A stretch of DNA of 32,000 nt, from contig NC_001264.1 of assembly GCF_000008565.1 (NCBI RefSeq), positions 288,347 to 320,346 on the forward strand, written 5' to 3'. Of this stretch, positions 5,426 through 10,687 are shown in pieces (positions within the stretch are counted from its first letter, which is position 1; every line of letters begins with the position of its first letter). The notes under the pieces were generated by a model, which saw nothing but the letters and a program-made list of their open reading frames with translations, did not search any database and was not told the origin of the DNA. This DNA comes from Deinococcus radiodurans R1 = ATCC 13939 = DSM 20539 (GTDB lineage Bacteria; Deinococcota; Deinococci; Deinococcales; Deinococcaceae). A program made the position numbers and the translations under genes.

Positions 5426-6397
5426 TTGCCGCAGCCGTCCACGCTCAGCGGGGCCGTCTACGTCGGGCGATTTCAGCCGCCGCACGCCGCGCATGTCGCC
5501 AGTGTGCTCGCCGCGCTGGAGGCCGCGCCGCGCGTGCTGGTCCTGCTCGGCAGCGCCAATCTGGCCCGCAGCGTGAAAAATCCGTTCACGCCTGCCGAAC
5601 GCGAAGTGATGTTCCGGGCCGCGCTGACGGACGCAGGGGCTGACCTGCGCCGCGTCACCTTTCGCCCGCTGCCGGACCGTTTCGACGCCGACCTGTGGGC
5701 CGCCGACGTGCGGGCGGTAGCGGCGGAGATCTTTGGCCCCGGCGCGAGCGTCGGTCTGGTCGGCTTTGAAAAGGACGCGAGTTCGAGTTATCTGCGTTGG
5801 TTTCCCGGCTGGCAGCGGGTCAACGTGCCGGAAACGCCGGGCCTGAACGCGACGGATATCCGCACGGCGCTGTTTGAGGGCGCCCCGCTGCCTGCTGGCC
5901 TGCCGCGCCCGGTGTCGGGGGCGCTGGGCCGTTTTGCCCATACGCCCACCTGCGCCCGCTTGCGGCGGGAATGGACCGCCGTGGGACAGGAACGCGCCGC
6001 GTTGCCCCCCGGCACCGTCTTGCAAGAGGAACGCTGGCTGCACGTCATGGACAGGCGGGTGTGGCTCGCTCACCGGCCCGGTCCCATCGGCCAGGGCTTG
6101 TGGGAATTGCCGGGGCGGGTGCTGCCGCCCGGCGAAGTGCTGCCGCCCGGCGAAGTGCTGCCGCCCGGCGAAGTGCCCCTCCCCGGAGACGCCACGTTCG
6201 ACCACCCCGCGCGGACGCTGGTGACACGGACAGTGGCGCAGATACGGCTGGGTGCCCCTCCCGCCGGTTTTCAGGTGGTGCCCGTTTGCCTTGAAGTCGC
6301 CCTCTCCCGTCCCCGCCTGTTCCACGAGGACCACAGCGTCATTCTGGCGCGGCTGACGGGCCACGAACAGACCAACCAAGAAAAGCCCCCGGCCTGA
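5426..6397 (+). CDS. nadM: NadM-type nicotinamide-nucleotide adenylyltransferase fused to a degenerate Nudix (ADP-ribose pyrophosphatase-like) domain
   Basis: N-terminus [15 protein letters not shown] matches the GRFQPxHxGH nucleotidyltransferase motif of NadM. The C-terminal half keeps Nudix-fold flanks ([25 protein letters not shown]) but has no REx2EE box. TTG start 2 nt after the pncB stop. Confidence 0.7.
6119..6190 (+). repeat. In-frame 18-bp tandem repeat GTGCTGCCGCCCGGCGAA x3 (perfect) plus one degenerate unit, encoding (VLPPGE)3-VPLPGD
   Basis: Read directly: units at 6119-6136, 6137-6154 and 6155-6172, and a degenerate unit at 6173-6190. Confidence 0.95.
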
Positions 6398-6412
6398 GCA
6401 CCGGGGGTTTTT
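6386..6412. terminator. Bidirectional rho-independent terminator between convergent nadM and the amine oxidase gene
   Basis: Stem CCCCCGG (6386-6392) / CCGGGGG (6401-6407) with an 8-nt loop, flanked by AAAA on the left and TTTTTCTT on the right. The nadM TGA stop (6395-6397) lies in the loop. Confidence 0.7.
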
Positions 6413-6451
6413 CTTAGCGTTGTGCGGCGGCTTTAGGCCTGTCCTGTCTGC

Positions 6452-8032
6452 TCAGGCCTGACTGCTCGCGAACTTGTGCATTTCCTGCACGGCGGTGGTG
6501 GCCGCGAGCAGGGCGCCTTCCTGCCAGCCGTTCCAGTAGGAGGTGTGCTCGCCGGCCAGCATCATGCGGCCATGACGGGCGCAGAGGGTAGGGTAGTAGC
6601 GCTCGCGGGTGTCGGCGTTGTACAGGCCGTAGCAGCCGAGAGTCCAGGGCACGCGGTGCCAGCCCACGGTCACGCCGTTGTCGAACTCCTTGGCGGCGGC
6701 GGGGTGCAGCTGCGCGTTGTACTCCACGACTTTCTTCAGGCGCTCTTCGGGCGACATGCCGCTCATGACCACCGCGTCGGTGCCGAACATGTAGGCGCCG
6801 AGGACCACGCCCTTGCCGGTCGAGAAGTAGTTGTTCGAGGGGTAGGAGATGAGCTGGTTGGGCAGGTCGGTGTACGAGATGCCGCCGTAGATGTCATCGT
6901 CCTGTTCCCAGAAACGGCGCTTGTACTGCACGCCCGCCTTGAAGCTCGAGGCGTAGGGCACCTTCTTGATGGCTTCGGCGAGGTCCTTGTCCACGCCGGT
7001 CAGCTTGATCTGGCTGAGGATCGAGAGCGGAATGGTGCAGATGCAGTAGTCGCCGCTCGCGGTCTTGGTGGTGCCGTCGGCGTCCACGTAGGTCGCGGTG
7101 ACCTTGTCGGTGTCCTGCTTGATTTCGGTCACGCGGGCGCGGTACTTGATGAAGCGGCCCACCCGGCTCTCGAAGGCGCGGGCCATGGCATCCATGCCGC
7201 CGACCGGCTCGAACATGGTGCTGCGGAACTCGTACCACATACCCTGGTTCAGGTCGCTCCAGAGCCGGCGCTCAAGCAGCGTGTCGAGGCCGATCGGCTG
7301 CGAGGGCGTGCCGGGTTCGAGGCGGGCACCGGGGTCGCGGTCATAGCCACGGAATGTGCTCGTTTCGAGGCTCTTGACGTAGCGCCCGTCCTTGTTGAGA
7401 AAACCCCATTCGTGCAGCGCTTCGAGCAGTTTTTCCTTGTCCTCGGTGGTCAGGCCGGTGTCGAGGTTGCCCTGGCTGGCGGCCTTGTTCAGCAGTTCGG
7501 CCACGTGCCCCTGCATGTCGGTGCGCGCCTCGGCCTGCCGCACCCGCGTGGGTTGCTGACCATTTTTCCCCTCGCGGTGGATGTAGGCGTTCCAGTTTTC
7601 CATGATGAACGGTTCGAGCTTGACCCCGAACTCGCGGGCGTAGTGGAGGTAAGCGTGATGGTGGCAGGGAATGCGCCAGGGGCCGGGGTTGATGTACAGG
7701 CCCCGGTCGAACTCGCAGGTCTGCTTGAAGCCGCCGAGCTCGGTGTATTCGTCGCCGCCGCGAATGGTCCAGCAGCGGCCCCCGGCGCGCCCGTTGAATT
7801 CGAGAATCTGCACGTCGTAGCCGGCCTTCTGCATTTCGTAGGCGCTCGCCATGCCGGCTAAGCCCCCGCCCAGAATCAGCACGCTCTTGCCCTTGCCGCC
7901 GCCGGTAAGTTGCGGCTTGGTGTAGGTCGAGGACGCGGCGAGGCCCATCGTGTTCATCATCTGGTAGGCGGCGGCGGCCCCACCGACCATGCCGACCATC
8001 CCCAGGAAATTTCTGCGGCTCATTTCACTCAT
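6452..8032 (-). CDS. Tat-exported FAD-dependent amine oxidase-family flavoprotein (L-amino-acid/monoamine oxidase-like)
   Basis: 526-aa ORF. Twin-arginine signal MSEMSRRNFLGMVGMVGGAAAAY. Dinucleotide-binding VLILGGGLAGMASAYEMQKAGYDVQILEFNGRAGGR typical of flavin amine oxidases. Confidence 0.85.
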   Translation of the reverse strand: MSEMSRRNFLGMVGMVGGAAAAYQMMNTMGLAASSTYTKPQLTGGGKGKSVLILGGGLAGMASAYEMQKAGYDVQILEFNGRAGGRCWTIRGGDEYTELGGFKQTCEFDRGLYINPGPWRIPCHHHAYLHYAREFGVKLEPFIMENWNAYIHREGKNGQQPTRVRQAEARTDMQGHVAELLNKAASQGNLDTGLTTEDKEKLLEALHEWGFLNKDGRYVKSLETSTFRGYDRDPGARLEPGTPSQPIGLDTLLERRLWSDLNQGMWYEFRSTMFEPVGGMDAMARAFESRVGRFIKYRARVTEIKQDTDKVTATYVDADGTTKTASGDYCICTIPLSILSQIKLTGVDKDLAEAIKKVPYASSFKAGVQYKRRFWEQDDDIYGGISYTDLPNQLISYPSNNYFSTGKGVVLGAYMFGTDAVVMSGMSPEERLKKVVEYNAQLHPAAAKEFDNGVTVGWHRVPWTLGCYGLYNADTRERYYPTLCARHGRMMLAGEHTSYWNGWQEGALLAATTAVQEMHKFASSQA

Positions 8033-8083
8033 GCTTGTTCCTGCCTTTGTCTCTGGTGGCGTTCGCTGTGGCGGCGCGGCGCA

Positions 8084-8836
8084 TCAGCCCGCGTCTTCCC
8101 CGAAGGTCATTTCTCTCTCGACCGGCGGACGAATCTGCTTGAGGTCTTCGGGCTTGACCTGGTCCTGATTGTTGTTCAGCTCGGTGCGGACATAGTTGAC
8201 GATTTTGGCCGCCTGCTCGTCGCTGAGGTAGTGGGCAAAGCCGGGCATCCCGCCGTTGCCGTTCAGAACCATGCTTTCCACATAGGGCGCACTGGCGAGC
8301 TTGGCGTTGCCGGCGAGCGCGGGGTAGTTGTAGACACCGCCGCCGCCGTTGGCACCCTTGCCGCCGGGCATGTGGCAGCTCTGGCAGACTTCGACGTACA
8401 GCTCGGCGCCGGTTTGGCCGGTGAAAAAGTCGTAGGTGCGCCCCTTGACCGGGTCCGCCGCCTGGGTCGTGCCGTGCGCGGGGTCTTCGGGAGCAGCGTT
8501 TTGACCGTTGGCGTTCTGCCCATTCTGGCCCTGGGCTTCCTGGCCCGTGGTGCCAAGGCCACCAGCGGCGTTTGTCTGAGCGGTTTGATTCTGCCCCGAC
8601 TGGTTCTGGGCCGTCTGGTCCGTCGACTGAGTACCCTGGGTGGACTGGCTGGATTGAGTGGTCTGGGTGCTGGTGTTCTGGCTCGTCTGGGTCATGACCT
8701 GCCCGTTTTGCGCGGCGGTGTTGCGCTTGACCGCCGGGTTGAACAGCAGCAGGAAAATGACCCCGAGAATGACACCCAGCGCGAGGCTGAGCAGCAGGGT
8801 CGGGACGAGCGAAAAATTCCTGGGAGATGAGGACAT
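8084..8836 (-). CDS. Membrane-anchored class I c-type cytochrome with a long Q/T/S/N-rich tether
   Basis: ATG at 8836 is preceded by AGGAGG (8841-8846). The N-terminal TM segment is [24 protein letters not shown] ~90-aa low-complexity linker follows. The C-terminal domain has heme motif CQSCH and distal-Met motif NGNGGMPGF. The ORF track start at 8896 is probably too far upstream. Confidence 0.85.
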
Positions 8837-8965
8837 AGGGCCTCCTGGTGAGAAACGAAACTCCCTGTCGACAGATGCCGCAGGGAGAAAGGACACGCTG
8901 TGACCGAGTTATACGCTCTTTGTCACATTTTTCCGCTTAATAGAACGCTCAGGTTGACGCCGCGC

Positions 8966-10687
<1,722 letters not shown>

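Follow-up and report, generated by a model that had tools for sequence, protein, structure and literature searches.

In a 32,000-nt stretch of chromosome II of Deinococcus radiodurans R1 (NC_001264.1, positions 288,347 to 320,346; called the window in the following), two neighbouring genes on the minus strand, DR_A0275 and DR_A0274, encode a membrane-tethered cytochrome c and a flavoenzyme of the flavin amine oxidase (FAO) superfamily. Our analysis suggests with reasonable confidence that the flavoenzyme is an exported L-amino-acid dehydrogenase that donates electrons to its own tethered cytochrome c and not to oxygen. Considered separately, the prediction that both proteins form a redox couple can be made with high confidence, and one or more L-amino acids are the likely substrate. 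The 526-aa flavoenzyme was found identical on chromosome II (CP031501.1, 412 kb), where the neighbours likewise matched. The genes are arranged as follows (positions refer to the window; ORF, open reading frame):

6452-8032, minus strand: DR_A0274, flavin amine oxidoreductase of 526 aa (ORF, Pfam match and match to the L-amino-acid oxidase of Rhodococcus opacus)
8033-8083, minus strand: intergenic spacer of exactly 51 nt between the stop of the cytochrome c gene and the ATG of the flavoenzyme gene, with AGGA 6 nt 5' of this ATG
8084-8836, minus strand: DR_A0275, membrane-tethered monohaem class I cytochrome c of 250 aa (ORF and Pfam match)
8841-8846, minus strand: AGGAGG ribosome-binding site of the cytochrome c gene, preceding the ATG at 8836

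An earlier reading of this DNA (the original prediction) had described two co-directional minus-strand genes 51 nt apart, one for a cytochrome c with a CQSCH site and an N-terminal transmembrane anchor, the other for a 526-aa flavin amine oxidase-family protein with the twin-arginine signal SRRNFLG. The ORFs (6452-8032 and 8084-8836, gap 8033-8083), the motifs and the hydropathy profile confirmed this description. Public annotation lists DR_A0274 as 'flavin monoamine oxidase family protein' and DR_A0275 as 'cytochrome c' or 'cytochrome c6'. RefSeq places the start of DR_A0274 three codons further in; the MSE(M/I) N-terminus is kept in other Deinococcus. An alternative, longer GTG start for the cytochrome c gene lies at 8896; the ATG and its ribosome-binding site are what D. 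wulumuqiensis conserves.

By its sequence, DR_A0274 is assigned to the flavin-containing amine oxidoreductase superfamily. Residues 58-518 matched positions 1-442 of the 443 positions of the Pfam profile PF01593 (Amino_oxidase; E 1.2e-76, 259 bits versus a cut-off of 19.8). No equivalog was reached in NCBIfam, all matches being confined to the N-terminus that binds flavin adenine dinucleotide (FAD). The best solved relative was the L-amino-acid oxidase (LAAO) of R. opacus (roLAAO, 2jae; E 2.5e-86), with an end-to-end alignment and about 36% identity, followed by the snake-venom LAAOs (1e-39) and then by L-glutamate oxidase and L-lysine oxidase. When the Rossmann segment was omitted and residues 103-526 only were compared with the solved proteins, E-values of 2e-64 for roLAAO, 3e-10 for monoamine oxidase B (MAO-B) and 7e-5 for Pnao (7u6l) were obtained, and the values for NicA2 were not significant (0.06 for 7khn, 1 for 7c4a). 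An AlphaFold model of moderate quality (predicted local distance difference test, pLDDT, 71.6; 20-sequence alignment) served to rank folds only, and not to derive active-site geometry. Foldseek placed roLAAO on top (3.5e-41, template modelling score 0.80), and NicA2 was not within the first 50 matches to the model. The fold ranking agrees with the sequence ranking in that amino-acid oxidases lead. Sequence comparison places DR_A0274 in the LAAO branch (roLAAO-type), outside the NicA2/Pnao clade; since NicA2 gave no significant match without the Rossmann segment while roLAAO still reached 2e-64, we do not regard the enzyme as a relative of NicA2. The profile and structure comparison with NicA2 and LAAOs that the original prediction had proposed pointed to the LAAO branch.

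The following motifs were located in DR_A0274 and compared among 103 family sequences:

8000-8020, minus strand: twin-arginine motif SRRNFLG, residues 5-11, followed by a hydrophobic h-region to about residue 33
7853-7870, minus strand: GGGLAG (GxGxxG), FAD dinucleotide-binding motif, residues 55-60, invariant in the family and in roLAAO
7667-7681, minus strand: PWRIP with Arg120, by alignment the counterpart of the carboxylate-binding Arg of roLAAO, invariant in 103/103
6932-6949, minus strand: SSFKAG with Lys365, the flavin-N5 lysine of the superfamily, invariant in 103/103 and in roLAAO
6785-6802, minus strand: LGAYMF with Tyr414, by alignment the counterpart of the carboxylate-binding Tyr of roLAAO, invariant in 103/103

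The twin arginines were present in 103/103 sequences, and Glu78 of the FAD-binding fold was invariant in the 103 sequences and in roLAAO. In the model, pLDDT was low for residues 1-33; the folded domain opens with strand E50-54, at about residue 50. In the roLAAO structures (2jae/2jb1) the Arg and the Tyr hold the alpha-carboxylate of the substrate. Because Arg120 and Tyr414 are invariant in the 103 family sequences, the predicted substrate class narrows to alpha-amino acids, catalysis itself being a prediction. The substrate had been considered unreadable from the sequence; its class, at least, can be read from the Arg120/Tyr414 clamp and from the linkage to RidA in relatives described below.

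The partner protein DR_A0275 matched Pfam PF13442 (Cytochrome_CBB3) with residues 141-216 (E 9e-15) and showed the following elements:

8741-8806, minus strand: N-terminal transmembrane anchor, residues 11-32 (Kyte-Doolittle 19-residue mean 3.0; no obvious signal-peptidase site)
8453-8722, minus strand: low-complexity tether rich in Q/T/A/G/N/S, residues 39-128 (about 90), of different length in different Deinococcus species
8372-8386, minus strand: CQSCH haem c attachment site, residues 151-155, kept in 20/20 aligned partner cytochromes
8237-8254, minus strand: GGMPGF with the probable distal Met haem ligand, MP being invariant among the 20 aligned partners

A single CxxCH followed by a distal Met within a domain of about 90 residues characterizes class I monohaem c-type cytochromes, and this is what DR_A0275 contains. 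The transmembrane-anchor layout was also found in D. carri, D. proteolyticus, D. radiophilus and a Deinococcus metagenome-assembled genome (MAG); the cytochrome c of D. wulumuqiensis is shorter than DR_A0275 by 39 residues. The Deinococcus proteins end in a conserved tail ...LRP...(F/L)G(E/D)(D/S)AG (window 8084-8160; loci L005, L009 and L087), which is missing from the proteobacterial partner cytochromes. In D. lacus (L007, 3300-3998) the cytochrome c gene is apparently frameshifted, with anchor and linker in one frame and the haem domain (CQSCH) in another, so that either the gene is a pseudogene or the draft assembly is wrong in the low-complexity linker.

Strong support for a functional pair comes from related genomes. 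We collected 80 loci from species-representative genomes encoding relatives with 50-56% identity, together with D. carri (69%); the total of 85 loci is made up of 4 D. radiodurans copies and 81 others (50-69% identity) from Alpha-, Beta- and Gammaproteobacteria, Campylobacteraceae and Desulfovibrio MAGs, Vicinamibacterales and Deinococcus. All ORFs in these loci were searched with the haem domain of DR_A0275. In 85/85 loci exactly one ORF matched (E 1e-13 to 1e-41), on the same strand as the flavoenzyme gene and directly adjoining it, so that the gene pairing on whose occurrence in related genomes the original prediction depended was present in 81/81 loci outside D. radiodurans. RefSeq independently names the adjoining genes cytochrome c. 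The cytochrome c gene lies downstream of the flavoenzyme gene in 78/78 non-Deinococcus loci, whereas it lies upstream in every Deinococcus. The partner cytochromes form one orthologous family with 33-58% identity to the haem domain of DR_A0275 (33-47% outside Deinococcus) and share the signature G..LY...CQxCHM..G.GA.GAG.YPAL...MP.F..L.D.Q.A.VVNY.R. Proteobacterial partners have about 130-150 aa and a Sec-type signal peptide, whereas those of Deinococcus carry the transmembrane anchor, a variable tether and the C-terminal tail. The pair is intact in D. radiodurans, D. carri and D. proteolyticus while the flanking genes differ.

On plasmid pDSHI02 of Dinoroseobacter shibae (L088, 1-6033) the pair is part of an overlapping same-strand array coxB-ctaD-hyp-ctaG-FAO-cytc. 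Judged by the encoded proteins, this array is a single operon for dehydrogenase, carrier and terminal oxidase, that is, a predicted mini respiratory chain from substrate to oxygen. Linkage to cytochrome c reaches as far as a 35%-identity relative in Thiodictyon, and no cytochrome c was found at a Metabacillus locus (FAO-Rid-tatA-tatC) or a Sphingomonas locus (FAO-TonB receptor-RidA). Because Thiodictyon is linked while these two are unlinked, the LAAO branch mixes both kinds of members. In the monoderm Metabacillus (pBY2G20; L095, 3477-6740) the gene for the 39%-identical relative is followed by genes for a Rid family hydrolase and a dedicated tatA and tatC, and this relative is probably a true oxidase that is secreted by export machinery dedicated to it.

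One member of the Vicinamibacterales encodes a 650-aa fusion of flavoenzyme and cytochrome c (P0113), the sole natural one, with the signal peptide of the cytochrome serving as the linker. A sister MAG (L049) has two genes in one frame, separated by a stop codon and 15 nt. In the megaplasmids of D. proteolyticus (L087) and D. radiophilus (L094) a gene for an S8 subtilisin-like peptidase is convergent to the pair, and an S8 protease gene also sits a few kb from the pair in the D. radiodurans window; the peptidase neighbours may link the pair to extracellular proteolysis. The module was located on a secondary replicon in 5/5 Deinococcus records (four species) of a plasmid database.

A second type of neighbour bears on the reaction product. 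In 37 of the 78 non-Deinococcus loci, a gene for a RidA/L-PSP protein (PF01042, 8.9e-21) with a signal peptide, sometimes of the lipoprotein type, lies 3' of the cytochrome gene, and three annotated plasmids show the order 'flavin monoamine oxidase family protein / cytochrome c / RidA family protein' in RefSeq. The PxRS arginine, which is needed for 2-imino acids, is kept in at least 28 of the 37 linked RidA proteins. RidA is known to hydrolyse 2-imino acids released by L-amino acid oxidase, and RidA genes cluster with those of FAD amine oxidases (PMC4433059). Because of this known chemistry and the linkage in relatives, an imino-acid product receives independent support. Genes for TonB-dependent receptors are further neighbours in about 22 loci, and genes for M20 peptidases in 6, which are mainly from Mesorhizobium/Aminobacter.

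Two incomplete copies of the family were observed as well. The Acetobacter pasteurianus record ApAb3p6 (L099, a 'plasmid' of 2046 bp) contains a gene for an M20 metallo-hydrolase and, cut off after 190 codons, one for a family flavoenzyme, and is probably an assembly fragment; the adjacency resembles the Mesorhizobium and Aminobacter loci. In Gluconacetobacter tumulicola (L100, 4001-4816) a truncated remnant of 271 aa adjoins a TonB-dependent receptor, and neither a cytochrome c nor a RidA gene follows it, which looks like gene decay in that species.

An alternative that concerns the substrate is a cytochrome c-dependent dehydrogenase for an amine other than an alpha-amino acid (a polyamine, an alkaloid or another primary or secondary amine), as known for NicA2 and Pnao. 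The superfamily is broad, public annotation says merely 'flavin monoamine oxidase family protein', the NCBIfam search ended without an equivalog, and no RidA gene lies near the Deinococcus genes. This is opposed by the invariance of the roLAAO-type carboxylate Arg and Tyr, by sequence and fold searches in which the best matches were all amino-acid oxidases and MAO (1e-10 without the Rossmann segment), Pnao and NicA2 were far weaker, by the PxRS arginine of the linked RidA proteins, and by the genetically studied look-alike discussed below, which acts on L-tryptophan. We therefore consider such a substrate unlikely.

Published data indicate how the pair is expressed. The following elements flank the two genes:

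8911-8928, minus strand: published DdrO operator ATGTGACAAAGAGCGTAT at -93, similar to the radiation/desiccation response motif (RDRM; PMC8533742, Table 2), with the following hairpin downstream of it
8851-8887, minus strand: hairpin CUCCCUGCGGC-AUCU-GUCGACAGGGAG (8861-8887; 11 pairs, 4-nt loop) followed by UUUCGUUUCU, conserved in D. wulumuqiensis
6376-6407, minus strand: bidirectional intrinsic terminator of the pair (AAGAAAAA ... CTTTTCTT), shared with the convergent NadM/Nudix gene

Eugenie et al. (2021) reported for DRA0275 all three marks of the DdrO regulon, namely a peak in chromatin immunoprecipitation sequencing (ChIP-seq), derepression on depletion and an RDRM; the peak lies over the 5' end of the cytochrome c gene (PMC8533742). 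In the RNA-seq data of the same study (Table S7, PMC8533742), transcript levels after 6 h of DdrO depletion were increased 3.5-fold for DR_A0274, 5.1-fold for DR_A0275 and 3.9-fold for the upstream malic-enzyme gene DR_A0276. In the control at 24 h, DR_A0274 and DR_A0275 were decreased 2.5-fold and 5.7-fold, and DR_A0276 was increased 16.8-fold. According to these publications the pair is bound and repressed by DdrO. As DR_A0274 and DR_A0275 co-vary and move opposite to DR_A0276 in the control, the data support a shared transcription unit of the pair, apart from DR_A0276.

The pair had also been credited with its own upstream region and terminator. The terminator was found: its stem of 8 bp, 7 of them GC (6386-6407), is followed by CTTTTCTT, and the stop codon of the convergent plus-strand NadM/Nudix gene (6395-6397) lies inside the stem. 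The picture upstream is mixed. A spacer of 129 nt with the DdrO site separates the co-directional DR_A0276 (stop at 8966), 3' of which it lies, from the ATG of the cytochrome c gene (8836), but it also holds the terminator-like hairpin, and a scan of the upstream region for a sigma-70 consensus promoter found none. The hairpin at 8851-8887 folds with -25.8 kcal/mol (z = -2.3) and would serve either to terminate DR_A0276 or to attenuate the pair's own transcript in its leader. The DdrO operator at 8911-8928 overlaps a TATAAC -10-like hexamer at 8908-8913. Because D. wulumuqiensis keeps only the 3' half of the site (GCGTATAAC), control by DdrO may be specific to D. radiodurans. A weaker second hairpin might mask the AGGAGG ribosome-binding site of the cytochrome c gene. 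An Rfam scan gave two sub-threshold chance matches only; one of them, to Thr_leader at 6303-6417 (E = 0.026), is probably just the terminator hairpin.

We propose that DR_A0275 and DR_A0274 make up a two-gene operon whose products would act as a periplasmic L-amino-acid:cytochrome c oxidoreductase. The flavoenzyme would fold with FAD in the cytoplasm and then be exported by the twin-arginine translocation (Tat) pathway, as its motif indicates. By homology to roLAAO, an L-alpha-amino acid would be held by the Arg120/Tyr414 clamp and transfer a hydride to FAD, giving a 2-imino acid; this would hydrolyse to a 2-oxo acid and ammonium, spontaneously in D. radiodurans and with the help of RidA in many relatives. 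Synteny and the published kinetics of analogous pairs suggest that FADH2 would be re-oxidised by the haem of DR_A0275 in two one-electron steps. Its transmembrane helix and the flexible tether of about 90 residues would keep the cytochrome on the outer side of the cytoplasmic membrane. From there it would pass electrons to a cytochrome c oxidase, as the D. shibae operon suggests. Since the electrons would go on to this oxidase, amino-acid oxidation would feed respiration and yield water and not H2O2.

Several observations weigh against this proposal. For the Deinococcus proteins it is built on sequence comparison and analogy, as distinct from kinetics or genetics, and the export of DR_A0274 is predicted from its motif. 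Among characterised enzymes roLAAO is the nearest; it, too, carries a Tat signal, and it is a genuine oxidase that forms H2O2. The conserved flavin-N5 lysine is linked to O2 activation. According to Akram et al. (2025), oxidase or dehydrogenase behaviour cannot be predicted from sequence (PMC12224317), and at least one Tat-FAO that has a cytochrome c partner, that of B. anthina, takes both acceptors. A tblastn search found no RidA in the D. radiodurans window, and tagged DR_A0275 protein was not induced by mitomycin C. The fusion P0113 was downgraded as Rosetta-stone evidence, as it may be due to loss of a stop codon or to a MAG/assembly error. The flavoenzyme of the Gluconacetobacter diazotrophicus cluster discussed below is a putative orthologue.

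Part of these points would fit DR_A0274 being an ordinary periplasmic or secreted LAAO that produces H2O2, with the cytochrome c as a general respiratory carrier or a peroxide-related partner. The distant relatives in Metabacillus and Sphingomonas do without a cytochrome c, and Tat-FAOs lacking a cytochrome partner are fast oxidases (PMC12224317). However, an oxidase of this kind hardly accounts for one specific co-evolving cytochrome c family adjoining the gene in 85/85 loci and in the 35%-identity relative, for a pair that outlasts the inversion of gene order in Deinococcus, for the cox-FAO-cytc operon of D. shibae, or for the requirement of the analogous G. diazotrophicus pathway for ccm genes. 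The H2O2-forming oxidase stays the main rival, and the determinants of O2 reactivity are not predictable from sequence; overall we regard it as improbable. Of the original view of a two-component flavoenzyme:cytochrome c dehydrogenase, the dehydrogenase reading receives strong, though indirect, support from the 85/85 adjacency, the invariant Tat motif, the D. shibae operon and co-regulation; the enzyme itself is placed with the LAAOs and not with NicA2.

A narrow, non-energetic role, such as the formation of one particular 2-oxo acid or signal or the scavenging of nitrogen, could be read from the sole genetic data for this architecture (tryptophan to indole-3-pyruvate, for auxin, in G. diazotrophicus) and from the neighbouring genes for TonB-dependent receptors and, in 6 loci and the Acetobacter fragment, for M20 peptidases, which suggest uptake or release of particular substrates, but it is a rather remote prospect in place of bulk respiration, given that D. 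radiodurans is not plant-associated, that the family spans soil, marine and gut bacteria, that the cox linkage in D. shibae points to respiration and that roLAAO is broad in specificity. Such a role concerns physiology, not mechanism, and is compatible with an exported L-amino-acid dehydrogenase.

Horizontal acquisition of the genes had been suspected from a GC content of 52-55% at 7381-7620. This value was not reproduced: the segment has 62.1% GC, and no 240-bp stretch of either gene falls below 59%. Both genes have 63-65% GC compared with 67.8% for the whole window. The GC content at third codon positions (GC3) is 0.896 for the flavoenzyme gene, 0.82 for the cytochrome c gene and 0.88-0.89 for the neighbours. 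Acquisition on grounds of low GC was rejected in view of the 62.1% and of a flavoenzyme GC3 that is the same as that of the neighbours. In a neighbour-joining tree (no bootstrap, long outgroup branch) the Deinococcus sequences formed one clade that was sister to all others and not nested within them. The NadM/Nudix gene (5426-6397) contains a perfect 18-bp tandem repeat of 3.2 copies (GTGCTGCCGCCCGGCGAA; 6119-6176, plus strand), which encodes PPGEVL three times.

If the proposal is correct, the overturned rule that all flavin amine oxidases use O2 would also fall for the L-amino-acid-oxidase branch, and hundreds of bacterial species would possess an L-amino-acid:cytochrome c oxidoreductase that is now labelled 'monoamine oxidase' or 'tryptophan 2-monooxygenase'. 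It would account in retrospect for the dependence of auxin synthesis in G. diazotrophicus on cytochrome c maturation, and it would provide Deinococcus, which is proteolytic, amino-acid-consuming and averse to reactive oxygen species, with an H2O2-free, energy-conserving amino-acid catabolism that is integrated into the radiation/desiccation regulon. Biosensors and the peroxide-free production of keto acids are attractive uses of such enzymes. Tentatively, and with more doubt than confidence, we go one step further: the LAAO branch may hold a large lineage, widely spread among phyla, of so-called LAAOs that are in truth L-amino-acid:cytochrome c dehydrogenases (an unlisted EC 1.4.2.x). They would often act with a periplasmic RidA, and with them the use of cytochrome c would have arisen independently once more within the FAO superfamily; of this module D. 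radiodurans would have a tethered, DdrO-controlled version for H2O2-free respiration of amino acids released by proteolysis after irradiation or desiccation. Pairs of a flavoenzyme and its cytochrome c acceptor had been demonstrated by experiment before (2021-2025), outside this branch of the family, and a look-alike operon with genetic data was known as well (2016). New are the assignment of the D. radiodurans pair, the placement of a cytochrome-linked family, often with RidA, in the LAAO branch, the Deinococcus-specific rebuild (cytochrome gene first, transmembrane anchor and tether) and the link to the DdrO regulon.

The best-studied systems for comparison are NicA2 and Pnao of Pseudomonas putida S16, which use the cytochrome c CycN (PMC9396064). 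Among 2911 NicA2-centred FAO sequences, Akram et al. (2025) identified more than 100, distributed over three clades, that combine a Tat signal with a neighbouring cytochrome c gene (PMC12224317). Their representatives showed kox(CytC) values of 10^4-10^6 M-1 s-1, reacted slowly with O2 and strongly preferred the cognate cytochrome; adjacency of a cytochrome c gene was the better predictor, and a Tat signal together with an adjacent cytochrome c predicts a dehydrogenase (PMC12224317). The general idea of a two-component dehydrogenase was thus already published by Akram et al. (2025). As the LAAO-type family has no significant similarity to NicA2, its sampling among the 2911 sequences is unlikely; the paper and its supplementary information carry no accessions or sequences for clade placement. 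A mixture of cytochrome-linked and unlinked members, as in their clades, is likewise seen in the LAAO branch. The NicA2/CycN-type pairs and the D. radiodurans pair have in common the FAO fold, the Tat signal, a co-oriented adjacent gene for a monohaem class I cytochrome c and the predicted logic of two one-electron transfers to cytochrome c, leading to respiration and not to H2O2. The D. radiodurans pair differs in its LAAO-branch enzyme, the carboxylate clamp and the position of the cytochrome gene in front, and DR_A0275 is transmembrane-anchored with a long low-complexity tether, in contrast to the soluble cytochrome of about 11 kDa of the NicA2/CycN type. No paper came up in literature searches that joined LAAO and cytochrome c with twin-arginine or with NicA2.

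DR_A0274 and roLAAO (2jae/2jb1) agree in the FAD motif, the Arg/Tyr carboxylate clamp and the lysine at flavin N5, and both have a Tat-type signal. Unlike the D. radiodurans pair, roLAAO is a secreted, O2-using and H2O2-forming oxidase of a monoderm with no reported cytochrome partner. The membrane-bound L-amino acid deaminases of Proteus share only the physiological outcome with the system proposed here. They convert L-amino acids to 2-oxo acids and pass the electrons to the respiratory chain without forming H2O2. They belong to the unrelated D-amino-acid oxidase (DAO)-type family, are integral or peripheral membrane proteins, and donate at the quinone/cytochrome b level, with no dedicated cytochrome c gene known. 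Their respiratory-chain linkage is cited in PMC5053998.

The closest look-alike with genetic data is the cluster lao-cccA-ridA (GDI2456-2454) of G. diazotrophicus PAL5, described by Rodrigues et al. (2016), in which lao, the first gene, encodes a 533-aa LAAO-like protein with a Tat signal and cccA a cytochrome c (PMC5053998). Tn5 insertions in lao abolished the conversion of Trp to indole-3-pyruvate, and mutants in ccm (cytochrome c maturation) obtained earlier lost 95% of the auxin, with 5% left (PMC5053998). In the authors' interpretation the enzyme was not a dehydrogenase but an oxidase 'assisted' by cytochrome c; they noted the cluster also in Xanthomonas and Caulobacter (PMC5053998). Both lineages are represented in our family, by three Xanthomonas species and a MAG of the Caulobacteraceae, and fragments from Acetobacter (53% identity) and Gluconacetobacter belong to it as well. 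A search with the Acetobacter fragment returned short fragments only, the top match being the truncated G. tumulicola remnant without a cytochrome c neighbour. GDI2456 is about 34% identical to roLAAO, compared with 36% for DR_A0274. The order Tat-LAAO, cytochrome c, RidA of G. diazotrophicus is the arrangement of 37 of the 78 non-Deinococcus family loci; D. radiodurans differs from it in that ridA is missing from the window, the cytochrome c gene comes first and its product is tethered.

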